A DNA stretch of 64,000 nucleotides from the IMG/VR virus record IMGVR_UViG_3300048587_000983. One strand, 5' to 3'. This document shows, one piece after another, positions 6,221-29,412 of the stretch. The position numbers and the translations under genes were made by a program. This DNA comes from a virus. A model generated the notes under the pieces. The model searched no databases, was not told where the DNA came from, and worked only from the letters and a program-made list of their open reading frames with translations. Each line of letters begins with the position of its first letter. Position 1 is the stretch's first letter.

Positions 6221-6565
6221 CTACTCCTTTTCCATCTTTTGGAGCTTATCGTAGTACGCCGGATCTTCCGTAAGATGATCCTTGGCGATCTCCTTGGCCA
6301 GCTCCGGGTCTGAGGTGTGCTCCCGCTCGACCTTCTGTCCCTTGCGAAGATCCTTTGCCGCAAATCCGCTGTCAGGCGCATTGTCCGCGAGCCCGCCCGG
6401 GATCTTGTCCTTGGCGGCCTTCTTCTCATTGTCGGTCTTCATAAGGTCTCTTTGCTGCGCCGCCTGCTGGGGAAGCTCTTTTTTGAGCTTTTGAAAAGCG
6501 TCGCTCTCGCTCAGAAACCCTGGGCGGCCCATTTTGCGTGCGTTCTGCCAAAATCCGCTTGTCAT
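6221..6565 (-). CDS. DUF5661-like protein
   Basis: GQKVEREHTSDPELAKEIAKDHLTEDPAYYDKLQKME is the hallmark motif; N-terminal SGFWQN is a degenerate tag. Confidence 0.75.
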   Translation of the reverse strand: MTSGFWQNARKMGRPGFLSESDAFQKLKKELPQQAAQQRDLMKTDNEKKAAKDKIPGGLADNAPDSGFAAKDLRKGQKVEREHTSDPELAKEIAKDHLTEDPAYYDKLQKMEKE

Positions 6566-7098
6566 GCTGCTCCTTTCCTAAACCCTCGCCAAAAGGCCTC
6601 TTTGAGACCCCCGGCAGGTTTTAAGGTTTCGTTTTCTTCCGAGAGGTTGAGGCTGTCGAGAAGGATATTGCGACCGAGCGGCACGTGAAGGTTGTCCCGG
6701 ATCTCCTTGGGGAGCCCGCCCGGCATCGGGATCCATTTCCAGCCGTGAACCTCGTCGTCGGGGTCGTTGCGCGTCGTAGTTCTGGGCAGGCGGTCCGAGC
6801 CAAAGAAGACCTTGAAGGCATGGATCTTGAGCTTTTCGCCGCCGGGCTTGGTCACGGTCTTTGATTTTATGTGAATGAGATCGTCCTCGCCGAGGCTTAT
6901 TCCGGCCTCCTCCTTCACCTCACGGATCGCTCCGTGGATCGGGGTTTCGCCGGGGTCGAGGTGGCCTCCTGGATTCGTCCAGCGACCGTTATCCTTTCTT
7001 TTGCCCATGAGGAGCTTTCTACCATCGACATCTATGATCCCGACAGTCGCCACCTCTTTCATGGCTCTTTTCTGAAAGCCTTCCCAGAAATCCCGCAT
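6562..7098 (-). CDS. NUDIX hydrolase carrying FWxGFxKxA tags at both termini
   Basis: Canonical Nudix box GGHLDPGETPIHGAIREVKEEAGI; N-term MRDFWEGFQKRA, C-term EAFWRGFRKGAA. Confidence 0.9.
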   Translation of the reverse strand: MRDFWEGFQKRAMKEVATVGIIDVDGRKLLMGKRKDNGRWTNPGGHLDPGETPIHGAIREVKEEAGISLGEDDLIHIKSKTVTKPGGEKLKIHAFKVFFGSDRLPRTTTRNDPDDEVHGWKWIPMPGGLPKEIRDNLHVPLGRNILLDSLNLSEENETLKPAGGLKEAFWRGFRKGAA

Positions 7099-7106
7099 GC
7101 CCTCTC

Positions 7107-7298
7107 CTATGGCCAGTAACGCTGCCAGGTATCCGGTGTAAACCCTTCCGAGAGTTCACGCGGATCCACCCGATAGGGTCGTGTTTTTTTCTCATCAATC
7201 GTCTTTTGCTCATCCTCCGCTTCCTGCAGCCAGAGTGCAAGAGGGTCTTCGGTGGCCTCGGCCGCCCGTTTTTTAAAGCCGGTCCAGAAGTCTTTCAT
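7107..7298 (-). CDS. Small tagged protein (putative virion cargo)
   Basis: MKDFWTGFKKRAA N-terminus; GAGG SD. Confidence 0.7.
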   Translation of the reverse strand: MKDFWTGFKKRAAEATEDPLALWLQEAEDEQKTIDEKKTRPYRVDPRELSEGFTPDTWQRYWP

Positions 7299-7305
7299 GC
7301 CTACC

Positions 7306-7599
7306 TCAAAATTTGGCGGGAGTCTGCGCTTGCGCCTCCAGTTCGGCCGAAATCAGATTTGCGGCTTTCAGGGCACCCTCGATACTCATATCCAGGACCT
7401 CGATTTCCAGTGAGACCTTGAGCGCCCTTAGCACCCCATCGGTCAGCGCGCGGGTAAGACCCTGCTCCCTTTGCGCGAGTTCCTGGCGTAAAGCGGAGCC
7501 CAGCGGTAAAAGGTCAAGTTCGATAAACAGGTCCGCGACGCCCACCGCGACGGCACCTTTGATTGCGGTCTTCAGCTTTTCAATATCGGACATCAACAT
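7306..7599 (-). CDS. Hypothetical helical protein
   Basis: 97 aa from ATG 7599, downstream of the hairpin at 7605-7643. Confidence 0.55.
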   Translation of the reverse strand: MLMSDIEKLKTAIKGAVAVGVADLFIELDLLPLGSALRQELAQREQGLTRALTDGVLRALKVSLEIEVLDMSIEGALKAANLISAELEAQAQTPAKF

Positions 7600-7604
7600 C
7601 CCCG

Positions 7605-7643
7605 AAAAGAAACCGCCTGACACGGGCTTGTCCCGGCAGGCGG
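7605..7643 (-). terminator. Rho-independent terminator/attenuator
   Basis: CCGCCTG...CAGGCGG stem with inner CGGG/CCCG, followed by TTTCTTTT on the minus strand. Confidence 0.65.
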
Positions 7644-7676
7644 CTTTGGTTGCGTCTTCCCATTTACCGGCGAGAC

Positions 7677-7976
7677 TCAGTAGTACGCGGCTTGTGCCCC
7701 ATACTGCATCGGAGTCTCGCTCGGCCTCGTCAGGGCATAGGTCCCCGCCGCTCCACCCGCAACGCCAGCTGCAAGAGCCCGCTGCGGGGTTTTCATGACG
7801 GCCTGCTGCCCTTTGGTCGCCATGGTTTTACCCTTGGCCACTGCCGATTGCATAACGGGACGTGCCTGCTGCCAGGCGGCCTGGGCTTTCGGCACCATGC
7901 GCTGAACAAAAGCCCGCCCTGCATTCATAAACGAGGCCTGTTTTTCAAAGCCTATCCAGAAAGACTCCATGATCAA
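7677..7976 (-). CDS. Small tagged Ala/Gly-rich protein (putative virion cargo/ejection protein)
   Basis: ESFWIGFEKQAS tag; ALAAGVAGGAAGTYAL hydrophobic Gly-zipper. Confidence 0.7.
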   Translation of the reverse strand: MIMESFWIGFEKQASFMNAGRAFVQRMVPKAQAAWQQARPVMQSAVAKGKTMATKGQQAVMKTPQRALAAGVAGGAAGTYALTRPSETPMQYGAQAAYY

Positions 7977-8380
7977 TCCTCTTTTATTCGGCGCGGGCTG
8001 TAACGGCCGTGGATCTCGCTGGCTTTGCGACCGTGCTGACCTACCATGGAGCCGATAGCTCCGCCCAGGTAAGAACCCCCGCCTGCACCCAGGGCTGCGA
8101 GAAGTTTTACCGCCTCCGGGTCAATCCTTTTTGACTTCGCCAGCGACGCCAAAGCCCCGGCAGCAGCACCGAGTCCTGCGCCCCCGACACCGCCTATACC
8201 CATGCCTTTGAGGCCTTGGATCGTTTGGTGTTTAAATGCTTCGCCGAAGCCCTGCATTTTTTTTCCCGGTTCCGCTTCGATCGCAGTCGAGATGGGGTTG
8301 CCGAGCAGAAAACGGCGGCCGTGGTGACCCTCGGGGTTCCCGGCTGCCGCTTTTTCAAAACCTTCCCAGAAAGAGTTCAT
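7973..8380 (-). CDS. Tagged glycine-zipper protein (putative virion cargo/ejection protein)
   Basis: MNSFWEGFEKAAA tag; GIGGVGGAGLGAAAGALA and GAGGGSYLGGAIG segments. Confidence 0.7.
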   Translation of the reverse strand: MNSFWEGFEKAAAGNPEGHHGRRFLLGNPISTAIEAEPGKKMQGFGEAFKHQTIQGLKGMGIGGVGGAGLGAAAGALASLAKSKRIDPEAVKLLAALGAGGGSYLGGAIGSMVGQHGRKASEIHGRYSPRRIKED

Positions 8381-8392
8381 GGTTTGCTCCCA

Positions 8393-9100
8393 TTAAAACG
8401 CATCGACGTTCAGCGGTACGAGGCGATCGTACTGGACGCTGACACCTTCCATGATCAAGACAGAGCCCGATGATACCGTCATCTGGTGGCCTTGAACATA
8501 GGAGTCTTCGACATAAAAGCCGCCCACCGTGTCCGTGTTTGCGTCCTTGAAGTAGACGGCCAGACCGGTCGGCTGCGCGAAGAGGTCGGAAGCGAGGTCG
8601 ATGATGAGATAGCCGTAACCCGGGTTTCTCTTCAGCTCGTGAAGATCCCCCACGGAAAAGGTATCGAGAAGCGCCGCGCTGGGGTCCGGGACCTCATTGC
8701 GACCTTCAGGAGAGGTTACCGTTGCGCCTACCGCCGCCGTACCCAGATCAAAGGTGCCGGCGTTGCTTCGGTAGTACGCGTAGAGCACGCGAAGCAGCGA
8801 GGGTCCAAAGTAGAACGTCCGGCCGATCGAAATCGAGCCGACGGTCCTGCCGGGGATAAAGTAGGACCGGGTGGAGCCGATCTCAAAAATCCGCTGCAGC
8901 TGGCGGCTTTGCTGAATACCGAACGTCTCAAGAAGGCCAATCGGGTAGGCGATCTCCGTCCCTGCACCACCCTCCGTGGTCAGCCGGGGAGGGCCGGCAG
9001 CGATGAGCGTGGACTCAGCGCTGACGAACTGCCCACCGACAAGCTCCTGCTGAACCCTGTAGTTATAAAAGTCCCAGTTGCTGTAGCTCGTGGTAGCCAT
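8393..9100 (-). CDS. Contractile tail tube protein
   Basis: Immediately downstream of sheath; IGLLETFGIQQSRQLQRIFEIGS...FIPG...GSISIGR pattern typical of myophage tube proteins. Confidence 0.75.
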   Translation of the reverse strand: MATTSYSNWDFYNYRVQQELVGGQFVSAESTLIAAGPPRLTTEGGAGTEIAYPIGLLETFGIQQSRQLQRIFEIGSTRSYFIPGRTVGSISIGRTFYFGPSLLRVLYAYYRSNAGTFDLGTAAVGATVTSPEGRNEVPDPSAALLDTFSVGDLHELKRNPGYGYLIIDLASDLFAQPTGLAVYFKDANTDTVGGFYVEDSYVQGHQMTVSSGSVLIMEGVSVQYDRLVPLNVDAF

Positions 9101-9112
9101 GTGTACTCCTCC

Positions 9113-11587
9113 TTAGACCTGGATGGTGATGTCGATGTTGTTGAGCGGGATCGGTATCTGAAAGTTGAACAGCACATCGACGGTGTCGATCTGTGTTTCA
9201 GATTCCGTAAGAGAGACAAGCTTTCCGGCTCGGATGACGCCACCAAACCTTGGGACGCGGGTGGTGTCGCGGAGAAAGATGATTTCCCCTTCCCCGGTCG
9301 TCTTCAGGGCATCAAGAGTGGTGTCGATGATGTTGTACTGGCCGATGTATGGCGCATACGTGCTCCGAAGGTGCTTGGCCATGAAATCGACGTTTTTGGT
9401 GACCGAATACTCCTGGAACTTGATGCTCGACAGATCCGTCGTCAGCTGGTGACGAACGTAAAGAGGCGTGTCGGGCGTGTCCTGAGCAAAGATCAGCGTA
9501 CCGCCACCTGCAATGGTGTCGAGCTGCGCTTCGGTGAAGTAGCGCGTCGAGTGTTTGAAGCCGAGAAAGCCCGAGACTGCGAGGTTTGTAAAACCTTGCT
9601 GGGTTGGAAGACCTGACGTCAGGGCGGCGATGGTACACGCTCCGTAAAAGCCAGGGACATCCTCTGTCTCCGATCCGACGGGCGCCTGAAGAACATCGGG
9701 CCAGCAGTGGACAACGCGGCGATCGGCAAAGGCCTCACTGTAGGAGGCGACCTGAGCTGCCTGCTCAGCCTTGGTCAAATCGCGGTTGATCTCGTAGGTG
9801 ATTCCCGTTTGAAGGGACACGATGCCTGGGATTGCAGTCGCAAGGGTCAGCTGACGATCGCTTTGAACGGAGCCGATTTTGTAGCGACCCTCAAACGAAA
9901 CTCCGCTGATCTCGATGTAGTGCCCGGCGGCGACGCCGTTGGCAAGAAAGGCCGCATTGCGGTCGTAAAAAATAAGACCGCCGGCCGAGAGGCCATCGCG
10001 CCGGTAGATGTAATACTGGATGTCTGTGGGAGTGCCGGCCGTGATGAAGCTCGACGCCAGAGTGAGCGAGTTGTCGCTCGTCTTTGTCGTGACGACATAG
10101 GTTCCGGGGTTGACGTTGGTACCGCCAACGATCACAACCGAATCACCGAGGGCCACGTTCAAAAACGCGTCGGGCGTGGCGTCGTTGAGCACGGCGGGGT
10201 TTGTGACAAAGCTGCCTGACCCATCGACTTGTGTGTTGACGATAACTCTGGAGTTATTCGCCGTCGTGACCGTCGTCTGCTCCTCCTGAAGCAGAAGGGT
10301 TGTCTTCAAAAGACTTGAAATCAGTACCACGCGCTCCTGCTTTCTCTGTGGCTGAGACAGCTGATCGACGTGGTTTTTGAAGAGTGTGTGGACAACAGGC
10401 GACTGCGAAAGAGGCGCTAGTGCGTACATTTCGGTGGTTTCGAGAACCTCGGTTGCCGCGGTGTAGGAGAGCACTTCGTCAGTGACCGCGTTTTCGTCAA
10501 GACCAAGGCCGTTGACCGGAGTCACCGTGTTTTGAAGCATGATGGAAAGCCCGTAGCCAAGCGGGTTCGATGGAACCAGCTGCCCGCTTCCAAAGACGCT
10601 CGTCAGGTCGGTCGTGCCCTCATACTCGCGCACCTCGGCTGCGAGGTCGTTGCGGAGAGCTCGATAGCTCGCATAGAACGTACCCGAGAGCACGTCGTAG
10701 AGAGTGGAATCGACTTCCGTCTGAAGACCAAGCGGGAGAGTGACCCCGTCAGCGTCAGCCGTGAAACCGTTTCCGGGTGAATCCAGGTACTCGACCTCGA
10801 TTTCACCGATGCGGCGCTTGATGGAATAGGTCAGCGGCGCTTCGGGAGTATCAAGAAACGGCGTTTGCAAAACGAGCGTGTTGTCGTCGGTTTTGCTTTT
10901 GATTACGTAATCGCCCTGGTTGGTCGTTCCGCGATCGCCGGAGATCGAGTAGGCAACATCCGTTGATGCGCCGACGCCATCGTTGACATCCGCGTCGAGC
11001 AAAAGCAGCGAGTCGGAGAGTTTTGCAGTGACAAGGTAGGTTCCGGTATTCGTGTTTGTACCGGCTGTGACAACAACCTCATCGCCGGCCTTCACCTGCG
11101 CGAATTGGCCTACGACACCGGCCGTGAGGCGGTTGCGCTGTCCGGCGGTGTCGGTCGTAACACCATCAGTTTGCGCGGCGACGATTTCAACGCCGGTTTC
11201 CTCGACGATTGTGACAATATCCCCTGCCACGACGTCCGCGAAAAGGGTAGGCGAGCTATCGTCGGTGAGAACATCACCCGCGCCCGATCCGTTTGTCTGC
11301 TCCGCCAGCACCTGGATAATGGTGTTTCGCATGACCCCGGACAGCTGTTTTTTGGTGGCCGGGAACATTTCGTCTTCAGCCGTAAAGCTGAGGTCGACAA
11401 CTGCTCCACCGAGAAGCCCAGCGTAGGCGTAGGTTTGCTCAGCGCCCGAATAGGTGCCAAGCAGATCGTTGTTGACGACCTGGTAGGCTGGGCCAATCAC
11501 GCAACATGGTAGCGCAAATGCTGCCAGAGCGGGCGCTGCATTCTGAAACTCTTGAGTGACAATCACTCCGGGGCGGCGATAAGCCAT
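9113..11587 (-). CDS. Tail sheath protein (824 aa, with repeated beta-rich insertion domains)
   Basis: N-term YRRPGVIVTQEF; C-terminal sheath core (DTIAGGGTLIF...YVRHQLTTD...EYSVTKNVDF...FQIPIPLNNIDITIQV); AAGGAGG SD before ATG 11587. Confidence 0.9.
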   Translation of the reverse strand: MAYRRPGVIVTQEFQNAAPALAAFALPCCVIGPAYQVVNNDLLGTYSGAEQTYAYAGLLGGAVVDLSFTAEDEMFPATKKQLSGVMRNTIIQVLAEQTNGSGAGDVLTDDSSPTLFADVVAGDIVTIVEETGVEIVAAQTDGVTTDTAGQRNRLTAGVVGQFAQVKAGDEVVVTAGTNTNTGTYLVTAKLSDSLLLLDADVNDGVGASTDVAYSISGDRGTTNQGDYVIKSKTDDNTLVLQTPFLDTPEAPLTYSIKRRIGEIEVEYLDSPGNGFTADADGVTLPLGLQTEVDSTLYDVLSGTFYASYRALRNDLAAEVREYEGTTDLTSVFGSGQLVPSNPLGYGLSIMLQNTVTPVNGLGLDENAVTDEVLSYTAATEVLETTEMYALAPLSQSPVVHTLFKNHVDQLSQPQRKQERVVLISSLLKTTLLLQEEQTTVTTANNSRVIVNTQVDGSGSFVTNPAVLNDATPDAFLNVALGDSVVIVGGTNVNPGTYVVTTKTSDNSLTLASSFITAGTPTDIQYYIYRRDGLSAGGLIFYDRNAAFLANGVAAGHYIEISGVSFEGRYKIGSVQSDRQLTLATAIPGIVSLQTGITYEINRDLTKAEQAAQVASYSEAFADRRVVHCWPDVLQAPVGSETEDVPGFYGACTIAALTSGLPTQQGFTNLAVSGFLGFKHSTRYFTEAQLDTIAGGGTLIFAQDTPDTPLYVRHQLTTDLSSIKFQEYSVTKNVDFMAKHLRSTYAPYIGQYNIIDTTLDALKTTGEGEIIFLRDTTRVPRFGGVIRAGKLVSLTESETQIDTVDVLFNFQIPIPLNNIDITIQV

Positions 11588-11598
11588 TGAAAACCTCC

Positions 11599-12267
11599 TT
11601 ACTCGTTGTCGATGAGAAGATCCGTAACGATTTTCTGCAGTTTCCTCTCCGCGACTGTGTCGAGAGTCCAACGATCCTGGATTTGTGCGGTGAGATAGAT
11701 AGGGACGATGTAAGTCTTGTCGTCAGCCCCTTCCGACTCGATCAACTGCTCTGCACCGATGTTTAGGCTCTTGATGGAAAGAAACCCATATTTTCGCAAG
11801 ACAGGAGCAAACCATTTGAACGAATTGAACACGATGTGCCCAATCTGTTCGGCCTCCACGCCTTCACGCGAAACGCAGGAAATTGCCAGGGATCCGGTGA
11901 GAATGTCGTTGAACGTGTATTTGCCGGTTGCGACTTTACGCTGCTCGAGGCTACTGCCCCCAAGACCTGTTCCAGTCCACGTCAGCGGCCCACGCACGGC
12001 CACGATTGCAGGACGGCTGCCCACAGTCTGAAGATCGACCGCATGAACATCCGCTATGATGATTTCTGTCTGCTCGTCATCCTGGTCGAAGTGAAACGAC
12101 CCTGGTGCCCTTTGGGAAAAGATCACCTGGAGGAATTCTAACGCTGTTCTCTTTAAAAAAACAGCCACATTCGGAATGAGATCGCCGCCGGCAATCGACT
12201 GCCTGCGGATGCCAAACCCGGTGTCGCTACCAGGCGAGGTCGGGTTGCCCTTCTTCATCGAGACCAT
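11599..12267 (-). CDS. Tail completion/terminator-like protein
   Basis: Position just before sheath; size and alpha/beta pattern of tail completion proteins. Confidence 0.5.
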   Translation of the reverse strand: MVSMKKGNPTSPGSDTGFGIRRQSIAGGDLIPNVAVFLKRTALEFLQVIFSQRAPGSFHFDQDDEQTEIIIADVHAVDLQTVGSRPAIVAVRGPLTWTGTGLGGSSLEQRKVATGKYTFNDILTGSLAISCVSREGVEAEQIGHIVFNSFKWFAPVLRKYGFLSIKSLNIGAEQLIESEGADDKTYIVPIYLTAQIQDRWTLDTVAERKLQKIVTDLLIDNE

Positions 12268-12287
12268 CGGCTAAAATCCTCATCGGT

Positions 12288-12449
12288 TTAGCCGGAAGGG
12301 GCTTTGGCGGCCTTTTTGGCCTTGACGGCCTTTGCTTTCTCCCGGCTTACAGTTGCGAAATGCTGCTGCTCCATCTCAGCTCCGATAGCTGAAAGGGCGT
12401 CCTTGATTGATTTATGGACAGTCACTCCCGGGATGCGCCCGCGTTTCAT
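12288..12449 (-). CDS. Small basic Lys/Ala-rich protein (53 aa, below the ORF-track cutoff)
   Basis: MKRGRIPGVTVHKSIKDALSAIGAEMEQQHFATVSREKAKAVKAKKAAKAPSG; AGGAG SD overlapping the upstream stop. Confidence 0.65.
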   Translation of the reverse strand: MKRGRIPGVTVHKSIKDALSAIGAEMEQQHFATVSREKAKAVKAKKAAKAPSG

Positions 12450-12457
12450 GACAGCTC

Positions 12458-13633
12458 CTATATCCAGCTGCCCATAAGGCGGCTGCCGTAACTCATGGGT
12501 TTTGGGACGTTTGCGGTCAAAACCTGACTGTTTGCCGCGCCCGGTGTGCCCGCATTTGGCGGCTTTGTCGGTGAGGGCGTCGGGCTTGGCTTGCTCCTTG
12601 GGCCAATCGACTGCCCCGAGACGGGTCTCGCGGTTCTTATCTTGCCGAAAGATTTCATTGTTCTGAGGCCCGAGGTGACCCCTGGCATGACCCCTATGAG
12701 GCTCGCTGCGGTCTTGGCCCTATCGAAGCCTTGGAGGGCACCGGAGGCCGTTTTGCTTGCAAAGTGGCGATCGACGCTTTTTTGGATATCGCCGCTCCTG
12801 AGTTTTGCCGCGAGATTGCCCACCGCCTCCGAGATGGCAGGTCTCGCAAGGGTCGTGACATAGCCCGTGGCAAGGGCGCTCCCTGCCAGTGCGAGTGCGA
12901 GGTGGGGAAGAGTCCCTGCGGTTCCAGGGCCAAGCACCTTGCTGGCAAGCCTGTCGGCAACCTGTCGCGCCCAACCTGGCTTCGCGTTTATGACGGGTCT
13001 CGACGCTTTCAAGAGCTCATAGCCTGCGAGGACGCCTGCTGTTCCCGCTGCGACCTCAGCCGCCCGCGCCCCCACGCCGCTTGCCGACGCCAGAGCAGAG
13101 AGTGAACTGGTATCCTCCTGCTCGAATTCATCGCTCTTCAAAAGAGCGCTCATCGTCCGGTCCTCTATTCCCTTCTTTCGTACGCCACGCACCTTCTCGC
13201 CAAGGGCTGCGCCCGGTGTCAGGGCGAGTTTATTGCCGAGGTCACTGAACATGCTGCCCCAAAGATTACGGGCCAGGGCCGCAGAGGCATCGAAAGCGGA
13301 CTTTTCCCCCGCCCACTCCCGCTCCTTCGCTCGATTGAAGCCCGCATCGAAGGCCGCAATTTTCTTCCAGGCCTTATAAGCGCTACCGCCTCCGAGAAGA
13401 GCACCACCGAGGCTCCCAAGGCCGGGCGCAGTATCGAGAAGCTTATTGCGGAGGTTTCCTTTCCTGGGATCCGCAAAGCTATCCTTGCCGAGACCTTTGG
13501 CTATATCACCGACCCCGCCCCCGGCAAGAGATCCTCCGGCGACGCCTGCGAGGATACTGAGCCCCTTTAAAAGCGTGAGTGCAGGGCTACGACCTTGTGC
13601 TCTTTTATTGAAACCCGCATCGAAAGCGCTCAT
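12458..13633 (-). CDS. Tagged Gly/Ala-rich protein (putative internal head/ejection protein)
   Basis: MSAFDAGFNKRA tag, internal AFDAGFNRAK and ALQGFDRAKTAAS copies; several Gly-zipper hydrophobic segments. Confidence 0.7.
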   Translation of the reverse strand: MSAFDAGFNKRAQGRSPALTLLKGLSILAGVAGGSLAGGGVGDIAKGLGKDSFADPRKGNLRNKLLDTAPGLGSLGGALLGGGSAYKAWKKIAAFDAGFNRAKEREWAGEKSAFDASAALARNLWGSMFSDLGNKLALTPGAALGEKVRGVRKKGIEDRTMSALLKSDEFEQEDTSSLSALASASGVGARAAEVAAGTAGVLAGYELLKASRPVINAKPGWARQVADRLASKVLGPGTAGTLPHLALALAGSALATGYVTTLARPAISEAVGNLAAKLRSGDIQKSVDRHFASKTASGALQGFDRAKTAASLIGVMPGVTSGLRTMKSFGKIRTARPVSGQSIGPRSKPSPTPSPTKPPNAGTPGAANSQVLTANVPKPMSYGSRLMGSWI

Positions 13634-14499
13634 CAGAATTCCCTCTGCTTTTCCCGTTTTTCAGCTTCAGCAAGAAGCGCCAGCTTCCGGGCCTCGGGCA
13701 CATCAAGTCGCTGCTCCACATCGGAAGGGTTGATTGCGTCGAGCCGGGCAAACTGGAGCATGACAGTGCGGTTTTTCTCCGGCCCTCTGACGTTGGAAAC
13801 CTTCCAGAAGCGCCCAGGCTTGAGTTCGAGGATCACGTCGTCGTTGTTGAGGAGCGGGTAGTTTGTGAACATGATATCGGTCTGAGTCGGCTGGCGCTTG
13901 CCCCACTCGGTGACCTGCTCGACACGGGGGTCGGGCTCAAAGCTCATCCAGACATCGATGGGCGGATAAAAACCCCCGATGCGGCCCGTTCCGTAGCAGG
14001 TTTGGCAGTTGCTTTTGGTGACGCGCTTTAGAACCTGATCCCAGCACTCGGGGCAGTTGGTTCCCTCGCGTCTTTTTTTATAAACCATGGCCGGCACACC
14101 AAAGACCCAGCGCATCGCAAAAAGATGCTCGTCGACCACGTAGATGCCGACAAGGTCAAGGTCACCGTCCCAGGTCGTCTCCTTTGAGGTGAAGGTCTGA
14201 ACCGGGGTATCGCCCTCGTACTCAACGGCGCGCACCCTGTAGTAGTAGATCTTGTTGAGGTCCTTCAGGTTCGCCGTGAAGTCCACGTACTCGGGAAGAT
14301 CCCCGATCGTAAGAGGCTCGGCATTGAGCTGGCGCATCTCGCTCGGGCTCTCGCCCCGGTCGATAAAAAAGCGCAGCCGCGACAGGTTTTGTGCGGATTT
14401 GGCGAGCCTCCAGCCAACCCTTACGCGCGATATGTGTTCGATCGAAAGGATCGTCACAGATATTTCCGCGAACTCTATGCGCCTAAGGATTGCTGGCAT
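13633..14499 (-). CDS. Neck/head-closure-like protein with N-terminal beta-sandwich and Zn finger
   Basis: YYYRVRAV (FN3-like); CPEC...CQTCYGTG; position between capsid and tail genes. Confidence 0.55.
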   Translation of the reverse strand: MPAILRRIEFAEISVTILSIEHISRVRVGWRLAKSAQNLSRLRFFIDRGESPSEMRQLNAEPLTIGDLPEYVDFTANLKDLNKIYYYRVRAVEYEGDTPVQTFTSKETTWDGDLDLVGIYVVDEHLFAMRWVFGVPAMVYKKRREGTNCPECWDQVLKRVTKSNCQTCYGTGRIGGFYPPIDVWMSFEPDPRVEQVTEWGKRQPTQTDIMFTNYPLLNNDDVILELKPGRFWKVSNVRGPEKNRTVMLQFARLDAINPSDVEQRLDVPEARKLALLAEAEKREKQREF

Positions 14500-14511
14500 G
14501 AAAGCCCCTTG

Positions 14512-14904
14512 TCAGTCGGCAAGTATTTTTTCGTCCTTTTTGAAACGTGCTTCGAGGGGCGGCGGCTGAGAAAGAAGAGCGCGCTGCTGCCGAAGGAGCT
14601 TCAAAAGGATGGCATAGTTGGCAAGATCGAGAAGCGTGTCTTCCACGGACTCGTCTGTGACCATGGCCTGCTTTCCCTTTATAAGAGAAATGACCCGCTT
14701 GAACTTATCGGTCATCCGAGTCAGCAGTCCGATTTCCGCAGGACATACCCCCAAAAGCTCCACGGCCATGAAGTTGTCGAACGGGTCGTCGGAGACGGTG
14801 TAATCATTATTTTTCTTCTCGGCCGTCCGCGCCATCCTCTCGATGGTTTCATTGAAGGCTGAGAGGAAGTGCTCCTTGTCCATTCCGGTGGCGTACATGA
14901 TCAT
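14512..14904 (-). CDS. DUF1599 / nucleotide-modification-associated domain (Nmad1)-like protein
   Basis: KKNNDY...DPFDNF...GLLTRMTDKFKR...ESVEDTLLDLANYAIL motif. Confidence 0.8.
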   Translation of the reverse strand: MIMYATGMDKEHFLSAFNETIERMARTAEKKNNDYTVSDDPFDNFMAVELLGVCPAEIGLLTRMTDKFKRVISLIKGKQAMVTDESVEDTLLDLANYAILLKLLRQQRALLSQPPPLEARFKKDEKILAD

Positions 14905-15095
14905 CCTTTGAAAGTTTCAAACTTTCCGCGATCGCTCTCCATCGTCAAATCTGAGAGGACCGGGCCAGATTTGGAAATGCTTCGCTGCATGATGGGAGGC
15001 GGGACCTCGCTATTTTCACGAGGCATCGCCTTCTCCGCCACTGCGAGGACTTCCGCCTTTTTGTAGAACCCTTGCCAAAAGCTCTCACCAGGCAT
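14901..15095 (-). CDS. Small tagged protein
   Basis: MPGESFWQGFYKKAE; start overlaps the adaptor stop. Confidence 0.6.
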   Translation of the reverse strand: MPGESFWQGFYKKAEVLAVAEKAMPRENSEVPPPIMQRSISKSGPVLSDLTMESDRGKFETFKG

Positions 15096-16164: not shown

Positions 16165-17091
16165 TTAGATCGTACCGCCCGTTGGGATTGGGTTTGGTAC
16201 ATCCATCTCGATCTTGGCGATCGACTTGATGTTACCGAAACCTTGGGCAATATACTCCCAAGTTTTCCAGACGATCAGATCGGCCTCTTTCTTGATCCAA
16301 AACTTGACGTCGTTCAGGATAAAGAAGTTGCCGAGGTAGGCGGGCTCAGTGAAGGCCCAGGTTTCGCCGGGAAGAACGAGGTCGTGCTTGTTGGTTACAA
16401 CAAGACGGCGCTTGAGGATCGACTCGTACTTGTAGCCATCCACGGTGATCTCGGAGGCCAAAGGCGAACCGATTTCGCTCGCGGGCTGGATCATGTAGTC
16501 GTCATAATCCACGGTGTTCATGAGGCAGCAGCCGACGGTCAGCTGATCGAAGTCGATCATTTTGAAGAGACTGTTCATCTCCTTACGATCGACCTGAGTC
16601 GCAGGCGACACGAGGCGCTTTCCGGTGATGGAGATGGCAGCTTCAGCGTGCTCCAAAAAGCGGAAATCTTCCACCTTCTGGATGTCCTTGATGCTGTTCT
16701 CCTCGATCACCTTTGTGATGGGGTAATCGTAGGCCAGCAGTTCGCCTTCGGACTTCACGAACTTCTCGGATTCGATCTTGTAGAAGGGAATCGCGTAACG
16801 TTTCCCTTGGATGTAGCGCTCGCTGGCGGTGCCAACGAAGTTTACAGCCATCGCTGCCGAATCGTGTTCGATGTCCACGATTTTGATCAGCGTATCATGA
16901 TCGGTCGAGCGGGTCAGATCCGCGCGAGTCACTGACTCTGGCGGGAGGATCCGGCGGGCGAAACCAATTTCACGAATCTTCGCGCGAATGAACGCGGCAC
17001 CTGCAGCTGCTGTTTTTTGCAAGCCCTCGACTGTGTCCAACTTCTCGATAAACAAATTGTTGAACGTCTGGGCGTCAAGACCTTCGTACAT
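16165..17091 (-). CDS. Major capsid protein (HK97-type fold, 308 aa)
   Basis: Follows protease/scaffold/decoration genes and has its own downstream hairpin; FARRILPP...PFYKIES...IQKVED pattern of HK97-type capsids; N-terminal QKTAAA. Confidence 0.8.
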   Translation of the reverse strand: MYEGLDAQTFNNLFIEKLDTVEGLQKTAAAGAAFIRAKIREIGFARRILPPESVTRADLTRSTDHDTLIKIVDIEHDSAAMAVNFVGTASERYIQGKRYAIPFYKIESEKFVKSEGELLAYDYPITKVIEENSIKDIQKVEDFRFLEHAEAAISITGKRLVSPATQVDRKEMNSLFKMIDFDQLTVGCCLMNTVDYDDYMIQPASEIGSPLASEITVDGYKYESILKRRLVVTNKHDLVLPGETWAFTEPAYLGNFFILNDVKFWIKKEADLIVWKTWEYIAQGFGNIKSIAKIEMDVPNPIPTGGTI

Positions 17092-17665: not shown

Positions 17666-18547
17666 TCAATCGAGGAGGTCAGCCTGGAATTTCTCACTGG
17701 GCGTCAGACCTTGCGCGGCATCGCGGGACGAACCGTCCAGCTCACCGAGTTTCATCGTGCCTCCAGCTAACTCCACAGCCTTCTCCAATACCTTCAAATC
17801 CTCATTTACGAGCGACGCCAACTTTGATTGGAGTTCGCTATACGACTCGGGCGGCTGTTCGAGGCCACGCTCCACCTGTTTCCAGAAGATGCGTTCGGCC
17901 TGCGCCCGCTTCTCATGCTCCCTATTCTTCGCGTGAAGTTGGAGCATCACAGAAGCAACTTTTTCCCGCAGGTTTTGGTCCTGCGCTGAGGATTCAAGCG
18001 ATTGCGACGGTCTATTTGTTAAATGCTTCATGCCTTTTTCCAAGCCTACACCTACAATGATGGGGGTTGCAATATCTCTTGCCTTTGTAATTGGACCAAG
18101 AGCGGAAGATCGCATGACCTCCCGATGCAGCTTACCCTTCCAGGGGATGTTTTCTTTCACCCGGAAAAGGCGATCGCCAACGAGCGGCGTCTTTCTAAGG
18201 ACGTTGCCTACAGCGGTATCGGCCGCAAGTGCCGGGCCGCTTATGTGCTTCCAGATCGCGTTACGAACCCGTTCCTTGCCAAACATCTTTTCGGCTGCAA
18301 ACTGAGCGGGGAAGAGGAGAAGGGACTCTGCGCCTCCGCCCCCTTCAGTTGCCTGGGACTTGTAACCCTGCCATGCTCTTTCAACATTTTTCGTGTCGAT
18401 GCCTTTGGCAAAACCTTTGGGGATCCTGCCGACCGAGTTGGCCGCAGCCCTCATAACGGACGGAGCGGAACCCGCCTGTCCTTTGAGCCGCCGCACAAAC
18501 CCTCTCAGAAAGGCTTCCTTTGTCGTTTGTCCAAGGCTTATCGTCAC
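17666..18547 (-). CDS. Scaffold-like/internal head protein
   Basis: Upstream of decoration/MCP; coiled-coil C-terminus ending PSEKFQADLLD; variant tag EAFLRGF; KVA and KRA sites. Confidence 0.55.
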   Translation of the reverse strand: MTISLGQTTKEAFLRGFVRRLKGQAGSAPSVMRAAANSVGRIPKGFAKGIDTKNVERAWQGYKSQATEGGGGAESLLLFPAQFAAEKMFGKERVRNAIWKHISGPALAADTAVGNVLRKTPLVGDRLFRVKENIPWKGKLHREVMRSSALGPITKARDIATPIIVGVGLEKGMKHLTNRPSQSLESSAQDQNLREKVASVMLQLHAKNREHEKRAQAERIFWKQVERGLEQPPESYSELQSKLASLVNEDLKVLEKAVELAGGTMKLGELDGSSRDAAQGLTPSEKFQADLLD

Positions 18548-18549
18548 GA

Positions 18550-18948
18550 TCAGTTCTCCGTATGAAACCAGGGCATCTCACTGAGGACCGAGCGGAACTG
18601 GATCCCGGCAGTCTTTTCGAGCTGCGCGGTGATTTCGGCATCGCTATAGCCCTGGGCTTTGGCGGAGTCTTCAAACTGCGCGACCTTGATCAGGGTCGGC
18701 AGATTCAAAAGCGTATCGACGAGGGCCACGGCGTGCGCGATCTTTTCACGCATCGTGAATTCGAGGTCTTCATTCTGCGAGGCCTTTTTCTCGGTGGGGA
18801 CCGAGGGGGCTTTGCGAATTTGCTCGGCGAGCTTAAAGACATCGTCATCAGTCAGCTCGTCCTGTGAAGGCGAGGCTGTTTTCTCCGACACCCGGCGGGA
18901 TACGATCTCATCTGTGTCGCGGATGATTTCGGAAAGAGGTCTAACCAT
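18550..18948 (-). CDS. KxA-rich internal head/scaffold protein
   Basis: 6 of 9 Lys residues are in K-x-A (KTAS, KLAE, KKAS, KIAH, KVAQ, KTAG). Confidence 0.65.
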   Translation of the reverse strand: MVRPLSEIIRDTDEIVSRRVSEKTASPSQDELTDDDVFKLAEQIRKAPSVPTEKKASQNEDLEFTMREKIAHAVALVDTLLNLPTLIKVAQFEDSAKAQGYSDAEITAQLEKTAGIQFRSVLSEMPWFHTEN

Positions 18949-18971
18949 GAGGGCGACTCCTTAAGAAATGA

Positions 18972-18993
18972 CGGGAGAGCAGGTGCCCTCCCG
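18972..18993 (-). promoter_or_regulatory. Intergenic GC-rich hairpin in head operon
   Basis: CGGGAGGGC...GCTCTCCCG stem followed by TCATTTCTT on the minus strand. Confidence 0.45.
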
Positions 18994-19002
18994 CAGCCGT
19001 TT

Positions 19003-19674
19003 TTAGTCGTCCTTTTTTCTGCTCGCCGCGTAGCCGGCCGCGCCGCCAGCCGCCAGGTAAGGCGATGCTTTGGCGAGGGCCTTGCCGCCCGCTGCCGCGC
19101 GCTGCTTGGCGTTCAGGTTGCCCTTGACGCCGACGTTATCCATAAAGGAGTTACGACCGGTGGCTGCTGAACGAGCGTCGTCAGCCATTCCCTTGTGATA
19201 ATCCTTCACGGCCTTGCCGGCCTGACTGGCTTTGTCCTTGGCTTTGCCGGCAAAGTCTTTCGCCTTTTGCGCGCCGCCTGCCATAAACTTGCGGAAGCGG
19301 TCGAGGCCGGCCTTGGCTGCAGCCGAAGCCACCTTTTCTTCAACGAATGGTGCTATGTAGTGCCACTCGTTGCCATGACGATCGGAGCCCAGCTTGCGGA
19401 GACCATCATACTGGCCGCGCTCGATGAAGGCACCCATCTGCGCCGCGATTTTCTCGGCTTCCGGGTTATTCAGCTCGTCGCTTTCGCTGGCGATCTTTTC
19501 GGCTTCAGCAGCCTGCTTGTCCATGGCGTCGGCGATGTTCAGGGCAATTTCGAGGCCCTTATTGTACATCTCGCCGGCGACCTTGGCCTGCTCAGCGGCG
19601 ACCTTTTCAGTTTCTGCGCCGAAGTCGGTACTGAGGATGGCTTGCTGCTCTGGGGTCAGATCTTGAATACGCAT
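19003..19674 (-). CDS. KxA-rich internal head protein with Ala/Gly/Lys tail
   Basis: EKVAAE, DKQAAE, EKIASE, EKIAAQ, EKVASA; AAGGAG SD at 19674. Confidence 0.7.
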   Translation of the reverse strand: MRIQDLTPEQQAILSTDFGAETEKVAAEQAKVAGEMYNKGLEIALNIADAMDKQAAEAEKIASESDELNNPEAEKIAAQMGAFIERGQYDGLRKLGSDRHGNEWHYIAPFVEEKVASAAAKAGLDRFRKFMAGGAQKAKDFAGKAKDKASQAGKAVKDYHKGMADDARSAATGRNSFMDNVGVKGNLNAKQRAAAGGKALAKASPYLAAGGAAGYAASRKKDD

Positions 19675-19745
19675 ATCACTTGCTCCTTTTTGTCTATTTT
19701 TAGTTCGACTGCTCTGGAACCGGCTCATGCTGCCAATGGACTATT

Positions 19746-20387
19746 TCAGTCTTCCAACTGAGCCAGCAGCAGGTGCTTGGTCAGAGCCAGAGCTGCGGCA
19801 TGCTTTTGCTCGAAATGACCAACGGTGGACGCATTGTTTTTTGCCTTCACTTCGTCCTGAATGCTCACAGACTTGGTGTTGACGGCAGACGACGAGTCCG
19901 CGGGTTTGTTGTTGGCCTGGCCTTGTGGTGGCTCGACATCGGTTTGAACGGGACCGTCGTGATGAGCGGCGGTCGACGCGCTGATGGTTGCGCCGCCAGT
20001 GAGGGCCTCGGCAGCAATCTTTTCGATGCGACGATCCCACTGACTTGCATAGTGATCGAACGCGCGGGCGCCAAGGGCTTCCTCGGCTGCGTTTTTCTCT
20101 TCCTCGGCAGTCTTCACTGCGATGTCACGATCCTCTGGAAAGAGGGCTCCGTAGACGCCGTCAAGGTTAAACGAGGCGGATTTTTCCTCGTCCTTGTCTT
20201 CCTTGTCGTCGTCCTCCTTCTCCTCCTTTTCCTCTTCCTCGGCCTGCTTTCCGAAAAAGCCGTCGAATTTCAGTTCTTTTGCCAGCTTGGTCAGGGCATC
20301 ATCAGATTCCTGAGAGTTGACGGAAGCGGTTTTTGTCGAGGCGTTGTCGCCAAACGATGCTGCGAGCAGATCCTGAAGTGTAGCCAT
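19746..20387 (-). CDS. Acidic KxA-rich scaffold-like protein
   Basis: TKTASV, GKQAEE, EKSASF, VKTAEE, EKIAAE; poly-E/D/K tract; GGAGG SD. Confidence 0.7.
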   Translation of the reverse strand: MATLQDLLAASFGDNASTKTASVNSQESDDALTKLAKELKFDGFFGKQAEEEEKEEKEDDDKEDKDEEKSASFNLDGVYGALFPEDRDIAVKTAEEEKNAAEEALGARAFDHYASQWDRRIEKIAAEALTGGATISASTAAHHDGPVQTDVEPPQGQANNKPADSSSAVNTKSVSIQDEVKAKNNASTVGHFEQKHAAALALTKHLLLAQLED

Positions 20388-20422
20388 GGTTTCCTCCAAA
20401 AAAATGTCTGATTGCCACGAGA

Positions 20423-22444
20423 TCAACTGCGCTCGGACTTCTTTCTTCGAGCGAGCCAGGAGCCCCCGGCCATGATTCCCGAATCAAGAAGCCCGCCGAC
20501 GATTTTCCCAGGAAGGTTGACCTTGCCCGTGGCCAAAGGCCAAAGAAGGGCATTGCTCGCCAGTTCCTGGACATCTGCCGTCTTCATAGGGGCGCTCTCG
20601 TCACCAGTGCCGTCTTCAGCGACTTTTTTTAAGCCGCCGAGAACATTCTTGATGACCTTATGAGTTCCGCCTCCTCTGGCAGACTGCATGGCGTCCGCAA
20701 TCAGACCACCGCTTACGACGTCAGGGTGTTGCCGAAGAAACGCGCTCAATCGGCCCTCCGTCTCGTAGGGGTTTGCGTCTCGATGCGCCGCTAAAACTCC
20801 TGAGCCCATGTAGGCAGCTGGAATGCCTAGAAAGAGCCGCCTACCCGCTGCGCCGAGGTTTTGGGTAACCCCGCCGAGTTTGAGATACGGCTTTTGCTTC
20901 AGATCCTCGATCCGAGAATGCATGTCGTTGGCATCAGGGTTCGTATAGTCGCCGGTATTAAATTGTCCCTTAACTTTAGGTCCAAACGTACTATGAAATA
21001 CGGACAGAAGTCCAATGCCGAGTGCAGTCGCCAGACCTAAACCTGCATTTGATTGTAGCAGCTTATCTATTCCTTGAAGACTCCCTGCCGGGGCCTTTTT
21101 TGAAAGGGCTGCGTAGGCTCCCGCGGCCGCGAGCATAATCGGAACGATCCCCAGCGGGGTTCTATCCTTGGGCTTGCCGTCTTCGCCAATCTTCATGAAG
21201 GTCGGCAGATCGCTCCGGTTTTGAGCAGAGCCGGTTTTGATAAGGATGGCGATCCGCTTGGAAAGATGGGGGCTCGCATAGCTTCTCTCCGGCAGGAACG
21301 GCAAAAGGCTCTGCATCGCACCCTCATCGAAGTGGCGATGGCTGATATCAAAGGCGCCCATATCCGAAGCTCCGGGGTCGGGGCGCATCATTGGATCAAA
21401 GCAGAGGGCTCTTTGCTCCAGGGCGTCGGCCAATTCGCGCAGACCTTTGGAGAGCAAAAAGAGTCTTTGGAACTCCTCGGGCTTCGGAAGGATGCCGAGC
21501 ATCGTCATGGTGGAAAGTGAGCGGCTGAGGGGCAGTTTTGAGAGCCCATCGAGGACTTCCTTGGGCAGTCTCCGCTCCCGCGCCTTCACATCGGGGATCA
21601 TGCGGGCGATATCCTTCAGCGCCTCCCCGGCAGTCTGACTTGAAGGAGGGTCTTTGGCTGTTCCGGCCGGCACATGCTTTTCTATGGTTGCCGCCTTCGC
21701 AAGCTGGGCGGCTTTTTCCGCGAGCGCAGCCGAACTTACCCCGTAATAGATAGGGCGCGCGTGGGCGACCTTGCGAAGTGTCTTGGCGATCCGATCGGCG
21801 CCGATCAGCACATAGCTGATGTCAAAGAACTTCGGCTTGTAGTTTCTCACGAAGACCTTTTTGCCTGTCTCGGGATCGATTCGCCCCATGAGGTACTTTG
21901 CATGGTGGCAATAAAACTTCATGTTGGGAGCCTTGTTGCCGCAGATGCTGCAGACGTCGTAGGGTATCCGTGTTCCCATGGACCAGTCGGGGTACTGCCC
22001 GTGCTCAATCCTCTCGGCAATGTCAGGGGCTTTTGCGTCGTCCAAAAGAACGATGAGCTCCACCCTATGAAACTGTGCATTATAAACGGCGAGCGGGACA
22101 TCGCCGAAGGATGCCGCCGGGTTTTTGTTTACATGGTGCTTATAGATTTTTGCGTATTTTACAAAGGTTCTATAGCCGTAGTCCTCATCCCCTTCGTAGG
22201 CCAGCTCCGATTCCGGGAAGTAGTCGCCGTTGGCGTTATCACCCCAATACTCCCCTGCGCCGAGCGCCGTGAGGAGGATCTGCGTTTTGCCTGGAATCTT
22301 TTTCGCCGCGCCGATATACGAGGCAATCGTCGGATGGTAGGCGCCCTGCGAGGCCGTCTTCGTGAGGTAGCCTCGCTCGTAGTCGATAAGGTGGGTGAAA
22401 ATACCTTGCTCGGTTTTACCCGGAAAAAGAAGGAGCTTATCCAT
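20423..22444 (-). CDS. Prohead (capsid maturation) serine protease with long C-terminal extension
   Basis: NANGDYFP, KHH, WSMG nucleophile motif, CSICG...C Zn insertion, FFDISYV...GAD; located in head operon. Confidence 0.8.
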   Translation of the reverse strand: MDKLLLFPGKTEQGIFTHLIDYERGYLTKTASQGAYHPTIASYIGAAKKIPGKTQILLTALGAGEYWGDNANGDYFPESELAYEGDEDYGYRTFVKYAKIYKHHVNKNPAASFGDVPLAVYNAQFHRVELIVLLDDAKAPDIAERIEHGQYPDWSMGTRIPYDVCSICGNKAPNMKFYCHHAKYLMGRIDPETGKKVFVRNYKPKFFDISYVLIGADRIAKTLRKVAHARPIYYGVSSAALAEKAAQLAKAATIEKHVPAGTAKDPPSSQTAGEALKDIARMIPDVKARERRLPKEVLDGLSKLPLSRSLSTMTMLGILPKPEEFQRLFLLSKGLRELADALEQRALCFDPMMRPDPGASDMGAFDISHRHFDEGAMQSLLPFLPERSYASPHLSKRIAILIKTGSAQNRSDLPTFMKIGEDGKPKDRTPLGIVPIMLAAAGAYAALSKKAPAGSLQGIDKLLQSNAGLGLATALGIGLLSVFHSTFGPKVKGQFNTGDYTNPDANDMHSRIEDLKQKPYLKLGGVTQNLGAAGRRLFLGIPAAYMGSGVLAAHRDANPYETEGRLSAFLRQHPDVVSGGLIADAMQSARGGGTHKVIKNVLGGLKKVAEDGTGDESAPMKTADVQELASNALLWPLATGKVNLPGKIVGGLLDSGIMAGGSWLARRKKSERS

Positions 22445-23640
22445 CAGCTGCCCTTCGATGATTGGTTTTTCATGTTGACGCCAAGGTCACGCGCAAACAT
22501 CTGCCTGTTCTGCTGGCGCAAGGGCTCGGTCGTATCCTTGATTGCCGCGCGCAGGCCTTCGCCAAGCCCAAACGCTGTCGCTGCACCAGAAAAGCCAGCC
22601 ATGAAGGGGCTCGTCTGACCGGCTGAGGCAAGGTTTCGCTCGATATCGGTCAGCTGCTTGATGTCGGGGAGCTCCACATCCTGCGCCTGACCCATGATTC
22701 TGGCCATAAACGTCCGGGCCGAATCCGGGTGGAGGGCGACGTGGGGAGCAAAATGGACGAGCGTTTCAAATGCCCGGTAGGCTTCTGCCGGATTATCGTT
22801 GAGAGCCACCTGACTCTGCTGGTCAGGGTTTGTGAGCTTGTCGCGGCGCATGGCTTCTTCGTAGGATGCGCGAAGGCGCTGGGACATAACCTTGCTGTCG
22901 CGGCTCGCCTGCACCTGATTGATGACGCCATGACCAATGCCAGCGAGAAGTGGAATCGAACTCACGAGAGCCACGTTTTTGAGGGCCTGACCCACCGTCC
23001 CAGGGCGGATACCGCCAGCGGCTCTTGCGGCCATACCGCTCGCAGCGGCTCCGCCTCGGCGTATGGCATCGCCAATGCCGCCCATGATACCGGCTTCCTT
23101 GACGAGGCAGAAGACATCGGCGTACATCTCGCCGAGCCTTTCCGCAGAGGCCTTCTTCGACATTTTGCTATCGACCTTGCCTGCAAAGCCTGGATCCTTG
23201 GCCGTGTAGACGGCCTGAAGAACGGCGAGATGGTTCATGTCGTCGTTGGAAAAACCCGTGTGAAGAGTGCGGCCGATAAGGTCTTTTGCTTTTTTTGGGT
23301 CGGCGGCAATCGTCGGCGCAACCTTGGCGAGATCCGCGAAGCGCTTGTCTGCCAGCTCCAGATGACCCTGGAACGCGGGGTCCTGCATGACCGCGTCACG
23401 CGATTTTTGTATTTTGCCCACGACCCTTTGCACCTTCATCAGATCGAAAAGCTTTATACCCCCGAGGATGGCGGCACCGACGGCTGCGTTGCCTGCGTGC
23501 CTTCCGAAATGGGCGTCTGAAAAAGCTCCTTCGTCAGCGCCCAGCTTCAAAAGCGCGCTGCAGTCTTCGTAGATTTTGGCCTTTGCTTCAGGGCGAATCT
23601 CACCTGCGGAAGCCATCTTTTCAAGCCACACGATTTGCAT
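22444..23640 (-). CDS. Internal head protein (two related helical halves, Gly-rich hydrophobic segments)
   Basis: 398 aa; KMAS, KKAS, KEAG sites; repeated ...APxxAxxPxxA... motif in both halves. Confidence 0.65.
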   Translation of the reverse strand: MQIVWLEKMASAGEIRPEAKAKIYEDCSALLKLGADEGAFSDAHFGRHAGNAAVGAAILGGIKLFDLMKVQRVVGKIQKSRDAVMQDPAFQGHLELADKRFADLAKVAPTIAADPKKAKDLIGRTLHTGFSNDDMNHLAVLQAVYTAKDPGFAGKVDSKMSKKASAERLGEMYADVFCLVKEAGIMGGIGDAIRRGGAAASGMAARAAGGIRPGTVGQALKNVALVSSIPLLAGIGHGVINQVQASRDSKVMSQRLRASYEEAMRRDKLTNPDQQSQVALNDNPAEAYRAFETLVHFAPHVALHPDSARTFMARIMGQAQDVELPDIKQLTDIERNLASAGQTSPFMAGFSGAATAFGLGEGLRAAIKDTTEPLRQQNRQMFARDLGVNMKNQSSKGS

Positions 23641-23647
23641 GGAAACC

Positions 23648-23905
23648 TCACATATTGGCAGGAGCCGTCATTTTACTGGTCATAAGGTTTTTTGCACCGG
23701 TCGTGAGATCGTTCATCCGGCCAACCGACTTCGTCATGTCGTAGCCCGCACCCGCGGCCGTAGCGCTTACCATTGGATTTTTTACGAGCACCTTCCCTGC
23801 CCGGGACATACCCTGAAGTCCCATGCGTGCGACGGCCCCGATCATGGCCTCTTTGATAAGGTCTTTTGCGTCCGGAGCCAGCCTGGAGAGAAGATCGTCT
23901 TTCAC
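23648..23905 (-). CDS. Small Ala/Gly-rich head-operon protein
   Basis: 85 aa, coupled to upstream gene; IKEAMIG. Confidence 0.6.
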   Translation of the reverse strand: MKDDLLSRLAPDAKDLIKEAMIGAVARMGLQGMSRAGKVLVKNPMVSATAAGAGYDMTKSVGRMNDLTTGAKNLMTSKMTAPANM

Positions 23906-27137: not shown

Positions 27138-27467
27138 ATGAACGACAAGCCCTTCGATCCGGATCCCGTGATTGAAGCTCTAAGAATGCCCTATCACGTT
27201 GCGTCGGCCTTTAAAAGCATCTGTCTTGCCGCCCAGGCCTCCGCCCCTGAGGATAAGCTCATACTGATGGCGGCAGCCCAGGAGCACGTCGACAATGAGC
27301 TCGTACGTCTTCGGCTCATCCTTCAAAAGCCAAAGGAAACGTCTCAACCTGATCGGCTTTTCGGAGCTGTCCTCGATCCGGATTACGGCCTGACCGAGGA
27401 GGCTCTGAGCGAGGCTTACCAGATTAGAGATAACCTCCGCCAAAGAAAGGATGGAGGCGAAAAATGA
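27138..27467 (+). CDS. Hypothetical protein
   Basis: 109 aa within GT cluster, AGGAG SD. Confidence 0.6.
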   Translation: MNDKPFDPDPVIEALRMPYHVASAFKSICLAAQASAPEDKLILMAAAQEHVDNELVRLRLILQKPKETSQPDRLFGAVLDPDYGLTEEALSEAYQIRDNLRQRKDGGEK

Positions 27468-29410: not shown

Positions 29411-29412
29411 GC

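Follow-up and report, generated by a model that had tools for sequence, protein, structure and literature searches.

The 64,000-nucleotide stretch of viral DNA analyzed here (the window) comes from IMG/VR record IMGVR_UViG_3300048587_000983 and makes up most of a 66,982-bp viral contig, on which the copy statistics were computed. About eight otherwise unrelated proteins of this uncultured, myovirus-like phage carry a common short peptide, M-x-x-F-W-x-G-F-E-K-x-A, and our analysis indicated that this peptide is probably a two-part head cargo tag that acts by loading and then clipping, like the capsid-targeting sequence (CTS) of phage T4. The T4 CTS is found on the internal proteins IPI-III and Alt and is removed by the prohead protease gp21. 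The C-terminal half of the tag (a hydrophobic residue, Phi, then E-K-x-A and S, A or G) would be recognized by the T4 gp21-type prohead protease that the phage itself encodes, and the aromatic half, F-W-x-G-F, would dock cargo to the prohead interior, that is, to the core, the protease or the inner face of the capsid. The cargo, which would comprise a NUDIX protein, a DUF5661 protein, Gly-zipper proteins and small acidic peptides, with SNF2 ATPases in relatives, would be co-assembled into the prohead and freed by cleavage at maturation; it would then remain in the head beside the phage DNA and probably reach the host upon infection. That the tagged proteins dock, are packaged, are cleaved and are ejected is our inference from sequence. 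A preliminary description of this DNA had proposed the same reading, and it is supported here in that every part open to testing in silico held.

A six-frame scan of the contig found eight matches to F[WD].GF.K.A, compared with none in 40 shuffles, and seven matches to FW.GF, for which the shuffles predicted 0.2. Seven of the eight strict copies start 3–5 residues past a Met preceded by a GGAG-like ribosome site, and they occupy residues 4–12; the remaining copy forms the C-terminus of the NUDIX protein. Degenerate forms are present as well (SGFWQN at 6565 and EAFLRGF at 18511), and all copies listed in the preliminary description were found at the positions given there. Synonymous codons differ among the copies (TTC/TTT, GGC/GGT/GGG, AAA/AAG), indicating selection on the peptide rather than on the DNA; an origin as a DNA repeat or recombination linker was ruled out on the same ground. 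A full-text literature search for the motif strings gave no match and no paper describing the motif, in agreement with the earlier view that it is undescribed. Tag-like leaders ending in K-x-A-[AS] are found on two further minus-strand genes of the window, at 22444–23640 (MQIVWLEKMAS) and 44448–44900 (MGFVQISKEAA), and from their sequences these may be extra degenerate cargo leaders.

To this set we added relatives, namely 34 IMG/VR loci retrieved with a back-translated tag pattern and 52 loci related through the major capsid protein (MCP). Among the related contigs were 107 non-redundant tag copies. Numbered from the first Phe, their consensus is F0 (100%), W1 (77%), G3 (100%), F4 (100%), E5 (54%), K6 (94%) and A8 (89%), where F0, G3 and F4 are invariant by construction, as the search pattern F[WDLFYM].GF.[KR] demanded them. 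Position 7 is R, Q or K, and conservation ends exactly after A8. The tag had been described as N-terminal, and this stood for seven window copies and ∼90% of the copies in relatives; it did not stand as a general rule, since copies also occur at C ends and in an inter-domain linker. Could the common N-termini be leftovers of gene duplication or module shuffling, with no common function? Some tagged families are indeed paralogous within a contig, such as the two MVKQAFWDGFEK proteins in relative L054. However, the 107 distinct copies are sharply conserved at nine residues and at none beyond, with synonymous variation, and the motif is found on unrelated folds, at either end of one enzyme family and in clades whose MCPs are 57–97% identical, so that we find this origin hardly credible.

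The preliminary description had expected the tag to co-occur with this MCP clade, and it does. All five of the long tag-bearing contigs encode an MCP 79–88% identical to that of the window; tag density is 2–5 per 10 kb where MCP identity is at least 73% and ∼0 where it is 65% or less, and FW tags are confined to contigs with MCPs at least 73% identical to the window MCP. The clade at 57–63% MCP identity has a shorter recurrent N-terminal form, M-F-x-x-G-F-E-K-x-A, which indicates that G-F-E-K-x-A is the older core and FW a feature of the sub-clade. A 12-residue hidden Markov model of the tag scored weakly on the distant-clade loci (at most 11.6 bits), so that its value there lies in the recurrent N-terminal position alone. 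Salmonella phage Arash (MCP 33.8% identity) and Vibrio phages D69, D148 and D181 (MCPs 32.8%) are the closest relatives in culture. The Arash genome contains one match to FWxGF, which includes a stop codon and hence is no real copy.

The end of the tag is also a signature of the head module. The minus strand of the window from 6.2 to 24.8 kb is a myovirus-type morphogenesis block. We counted motifs in a head-module set of 3205 aa, in which no protein has a tag matching the tested patterns, and in the remaining 14,269 aa of the proteome, with within-protein shuffles as controls. The pattern EK.A occurred 16 times in the head module versus 1.8 times in shuffles (6 versus 4.5 in the rest of the proteome), K.A[AGS] 30 versus 8.7 times (15 versus 14) and [LFMIV].K.A[AGS] 12 versus 1.9 times (5 versus 3.5). 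Permuted or reversed motifs of the same composition gave only 5–11 matches in the head module, or 0–3 for the EK.A set, indicating that residue order matters; Arg did not substitute for Lys. The head sites read E-K-x-A-S/A/G, with variation in the residue ahead of K, and the residues fixed in both the head sites and the tag are K and A.

These sites are concentrated in scaffold-like proteins; the head-module genes described here all lie on the minus strand. Three scaffold/core-like proteins of 132, 241 and 226 aa (18550..20426) have 4, 8 and 5 E-K-x-A-[S/A/G] sites, respectively, and two head-module proteins of 398 and 304 aa (22444..24816) contain 3 and 9 K-x-A sites, respectively; MQIVWLEKMAS is the N-terminus of the larger one. 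A 293-aa head-module protein (17666..18547) carries, close to its N-terminus, the conserved tag-like sequence A-F-L-x-G-F-x-R-x-L, and K-x-A-S is conserved in it at two places. The MCP itself (308 aa, 16165..17091, phrog_2522) has G-L-Q-K-T-A-A in its N-arm at residues 23–29; the site is found in every clade, including Arash (GLVKEAG), and K26 and A28 are retained in 96% of 46 orthologs. Across the head sites, the Ala was kept in 0.61 of orthologs versus 0.43 for other Ala residues (p 7e-4), and the difference between site Lys and other Lys residues was marginal (p 0.056). Arash showed the same pattern: its 130–180-kb region has 33 sites versus 5.0 expected, and its 1–45-kb region 3 versus 3.9. 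The Arash sites cluster in gp220, gp221, gp222 (the protease homolog), gp223, gp225, gp226 (the MCP) and gp242, and none was found in the tail proteins gp227–239. The K-x-A ending noted in the preliminary description is on these counts an order-specific head-module signature, enriched in the head proteins of the window and in Arash and not in the rest of the proteome. The final part of the tag matches this putative prohead protease motif, recurrent in core and capsid proteins; its role as a cleavage site we infer.

We then considered the enzyme predicted to act on these sites. A 673-aa protein (20423..22444, minus strand) has an N-domain (∼residues 40–228) that matches phrog_18299, head maturation protease (E 8e-9). 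An AlphaFold2 model of residues 1–240, built on a 13-sequence alignment, reached a predicted local distance difference test score (pLDDT) of 73, and in a Foldseek comparison of this model with PDB three chains of T4 gp21 (5JBL) were the only significant matches (prob 1.00, E 6e-4); the TM-scores for 5JBL were modest (0.36–0.51), and herpesvirus proteases came lower in the list. A PDB sequence search with the 673-aa protein gave no match. The Arash protease domain is 41% identical to that of the window. Conserved K-x-A sites stand at both ends of the domain: L-x-K-T-A-S at residues 27–32 (L-x-K-x-A-[SAG] across orthologs), and K225 and A227, which are invariant in the alignment and located exactly at the domain end. 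These results agree with the earlier claim that the head module encodes a prohead protease. Within the domain Cys165, Cys168 and Cys179 are invariant, a sequence pattern that suggests a metal site, and the ∼445-aa C-terminal part of the protein is conserved in the FW clade, whereas distant relatives have a shorter or dissimilar one (Arash gp222 has 491 aa).

Proteases of the gp21 family recognize a short sequence found repeatedly in core proteins and also in the N-terminal propeptides carried by head cargo, and cut after L/I-x-E in T4 and after A-x-E in SPN3US (PMC10052503). Judged from the hydrophobic P3 and charged P1 of such sites, the cut in the tag may fall after K, between K and R in F-E-K-R-A, and not after A. 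A cut after Lys would be invisible to tryptic virion proteomics, and cultured relatives may therefore undergo processing of this kind that has escaped notice.

Among the tagged proteins is the NUDIX hydrolase (178 aa, 6562..7098, minus strand), which carries an N-terminal tag at 7063–7098 (MRDFWEGFQKRA) and a C-terminal one at 6565–6600 (EAFWRGFRKGAA). It matches PF00293 (E 5.8e-18) at 65.6 bits, above the cut-off of 21.1, and thus has a NUDIX domain. In its AlphaFold2 model the folded core comprises residues 14–150, and both tags are short detached helices (pLDDT <45). Its orthologs in relatives differ in tag placement: some have it only at the N-terminus, some only at the C-terminus and some at both. 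The NUDIX stop codon overlaps by ATGA the start of the gene for the DUF5661 protein (114 aa, 6221..6565, minus strand; PF18905, E 9.9e-11), which has the degenerate leader MTSGFWQN and an E-K-K-A-A site ∼20 residues ahead of the domain. In relative L031 (479–1531, minus strand) NUDIX and DUF5661 form a single 351-aa open reading frame (ORF), in which motifs resembling the tag mark the domain junctions. Comparison of this sequence with window positions 6221–7098 points to gene fission or fusion at the tag, and the junction motifs are consistent with cleavable linkers, that is, with proteolytic processing.

Upstream on the same strand lie an acidic tagged protein of 63 aa (7107..7298, MKDFWTGFKKRA), homologous to tagged acidic proteins of ∼60 aa in four relatives (L011, L015, L019 and L031); an Ala/Gln-rich tagged protein of 97 aa (7677..7970, MESFWIGFEKQA), for which the true start in the ORF 7677–7976 is probably the ATG at 7970; and a tagged protein of 135 aa with two Gly-zipper segments (7973..8380, MNSFWEGFEKAA). 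Farther along the minus strand a Gly/Ala-rich protein of 391 aa (12458..13633) has the N-terminal FD variant of the tag, MSAFDAGFNKRA, together with an internal AAFDAGFNRAK, and its tagged orthologs in L043 and L066 measure 390–394 aa. A 64-aa tagged protein (14901..15095, MPGESFWQGFYKKA) probably starts at the ATG at 15095 within the 78-aa ORF 14901–15137. Outside the structural block, on the plus strand, a 137-aa tagged protein (41670..42083, MRSFWDGFEKKA) starts at ATG 41670 of the ORF 41667–42083 and has tagged homologs in L004 and L024. The sequences behind the tag had been called unrelated, which agrees with our scans: one protein matched NUDIX, the five non-NUDIX tagged proteins scanned with both libraries had no Pfam or PHROGs family, the 78-aa ORF 14901–15137 had no match in a scan of Pfam, and eight tagged proteins from relatives had no Pfam or PHROGs family. 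Several of the family-less tagged proteins of the window are Gly-zipper-like. A second short motif, G-x-M-P-G-[IV]-T-S-G, follows the tag in ∼94-aa proteins of L013, L019, L022 and L032 and recurs towards the C-terminus of the 391-aa protein at 12458–13633.

The tag could instead be an amphipathic aromatic helix that directs proteins to the inner membrane, perhaps to serve in membrane-associated assembly, lysis or superinfection, its likeness to K-x-A sites being incidental. Consistent with such a role, hydrophobic segments of Gly-zipper or Gly/Ala-rich type are present in several tagged proteins, and AlphaFold2 predicts a short helix for the tag. We nevertheless consider a membrane role quite improbable: the tag is also carried by soluble enzymes (NUDIX, SNF2) and by acidic 60-aa peptides with no hydrophobic segment, its end matches a head-specific, order-specific motif, and copies are found at C-termini and in a linker. 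Gene position raises another alternative, in which the tag loads a different virion compartment, such as the tail lumen or baseplate, or binds a hub such as a virion RNA polymerase. Five tagged genes (6.2–8.4 kb) lie directly downstream of the sheath gene (9113–11671, minus strand, phrog_279) and a putative tube gene, and the SNF2 gene adjoins the RNA polymerase gene in relatives, as seen in Arash. The lack of K-x-A sites in the Arash tail proteins, and the fact that the motif is common to the MCP, the scaffold-like proteins and the protease, make this destination very improbable.

Besides NUDIX, the recognizable folds among tagged proteins are two forms of SNF2 ATPase in relatives. A tagged SNF2 protein of 476 aa in L012 is 39% identical to Arash gp217 (E 2e-103), and the alignment begins after the tag. 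In Arash virions gp217 is abundant, having yielded 1148 spectra and 38 unique peptides (PMC10585845). An SNF2 ORF in L018 (6055–7623, plus strand) has the N-end tag variant MNDFWEEFEKQA and a second full tag near its C end, which is followed immediately by a Gly-zipper segment where the contig ends; as judged from this arrangement, it may be a fused SNF2 and Gly-zipper polyprotein. On the minus strand of L091 (G002:C1:94910-98818), another relative, one uninterrupted frame of 2497 aa has a match to the beta subunit of the Arash RNA polymerase (E 1.7e-36). The G002 polymerase leader ends in I-K-K-A-A and Arash gp206 begins MPKSAS, and from these two sequences the virion polymerase may be processed too.

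A simpler explanation is that the motif is a mere protease processing site, in a pro-peptide or polyprotein linker, with no docking role, and that the proteins are targeted to the head in some other way. G-Phi-x-K-x-A is also the form of ordinary head sites (GLQKTA in the MCP, GLLKTA and GLVKEA in Arash), the motif lies between the domains of the fused NUDIX-DUF5661 ORF, and the SNF2 protein in Arash virions is untagged. However, F-W (positions 0 and 1) and G-F (positions 3 and 4) are near-invariant on cargo and absent from the scaffold K-x-A sites, and the tag is the sole feature common to the 60-aa cargo proteins. Moreover, gp21-type proteases work inside proheads, so their substrates must reach that place anyway. 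An explanation by processing alone therefore seems to us unlikely.

Several points weigh against a cargo tag that is loaded and clipped. The enrichment patterns were partly picked after the tag had been seen, though they were tested on non-tag proteins. The FW tag is found in no cultured phage, Arash included, and a K-x-A cut would not remove the C-terminal copies. The residue before K is variable, whereas known gp21-family enzymes cut after Glu, and we know of no precedent for Lys-based specificity in this family. The presence of the SNF2 homolog in Arash virions without a tag indicates that the tag is not the sole route into virions. Finally, the link from SNF2 to virion packaging is weak, because the proteins listed for Arash virions number 116 of 252, many of them replication enzymes, too broad a set to discriminate cargo (PMC10585845).

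A broader proposal, which we regard as possible but doubtful, is that the motif is a portable, position-independent peptide code in a large group of uncultured phages. An aromatic docking half would be joined to a Lys-x-Ala site, the gp21-fold protease would have switched from Glu to Lys, and the same peptide would load proteins into the capsid as well as link the parts of polyproteins. In that case all the injected proteins would be readable from sequence (NUDIX, SNF2, possibly a single-chain RNA polymerase and pore-forming Gly-zipper proteins), and the tag of 9–12 aa could be reused to package foreign proteins.

Returning to the cargo tag, we compared it with known systems. To our knowledge the T4 CTS is the only well-studied capsid-targeting peptide. 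Like the tag, the CTS is a short (∼10–12 aa) N-terminal peptide common to unrelated proteins and ends in a protease motif that recurs in core and capsid proteins; in both systems the protease has the gp21 fold, and the cargo here plausibly includes host-delivered enzymes. The window tag differs in that it has no sequence similarity to the CTS, so that no relationship was found at that level, and has Lys-x-Ala instead of Leu/Ile-x-Glu; some of its copies are C-terminal or lie between domains, and its putative protease is the N-domain of a 673-aa protein. Encapsulin cargo-loading peptides are short terminal peptides that bring unrelated enzymes into an HK97-fold shell from either terminus; they have another consensus, are uncleaved and bind the shell protein directly. 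The window tag is likewise found at both termini, yet carries a probable protease site. The head propeptides of phiKZ-like phages and SPN3US are cut by gp175/gp245 at A/S/G-x-E (PMC10052503). That system shares with ours a gp21-type protease, many motif copies in head-core and ejection proteins and some short N-propeptides (20–24 aa), with a virion-packaged RNA polymerase in the wider group; unlike the tag, its propeptides are mostly long (111–254 aa), have no common leader and a motif that ends in Glu. Arash (OQ632216; PMC10585845) resembles the window phage in the K-x-A enrichment of its head module and differs in having no FWxGF leader, an untagged SNF2 homolog and a genome of ∼181 kb. The concept is thus known from T4, and what is new is most likely the tag sequence and the putative cutting rule.

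Other features of the window and its relatives were noted. Amid the tagged genes of the structural block, the minus-strand gene at 14512–14904 encodes a DUF1599 "nucleotide modification associated domain 1" protein (PF07659; phrog_1485, E 1.7e-20). Two genes resembling those for glycosyltransferases or capsule synthesis (phrog_2170; PF05159 Capsule_synth, E 7.8e-13) lie at 27464–30357 on the plus strand, beside the DNA polymerase region. CheckV rated three IMG/VR contigs of 82–108 kb (G001, G003 and G004) as 100% complete; relatives with the same head module (L062, L070, L075 and L076) reach 150–180 kb, so CheckV completeness looks unreliable for this phage group.

If confirmed, the tag would be a second capsid-targeting peptide, unrelated to the T4 CTS, and would involve Lys-based recognition by a gp21-type protease. 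It would list from sequence alone the proteins that are carried in the head and probably injected, and would do so for the widespread uncultured large phages related to Arash. The predicted cargo would include candidate enzymes of host takeover or anti-defence, such as NUDIX and SNF2.

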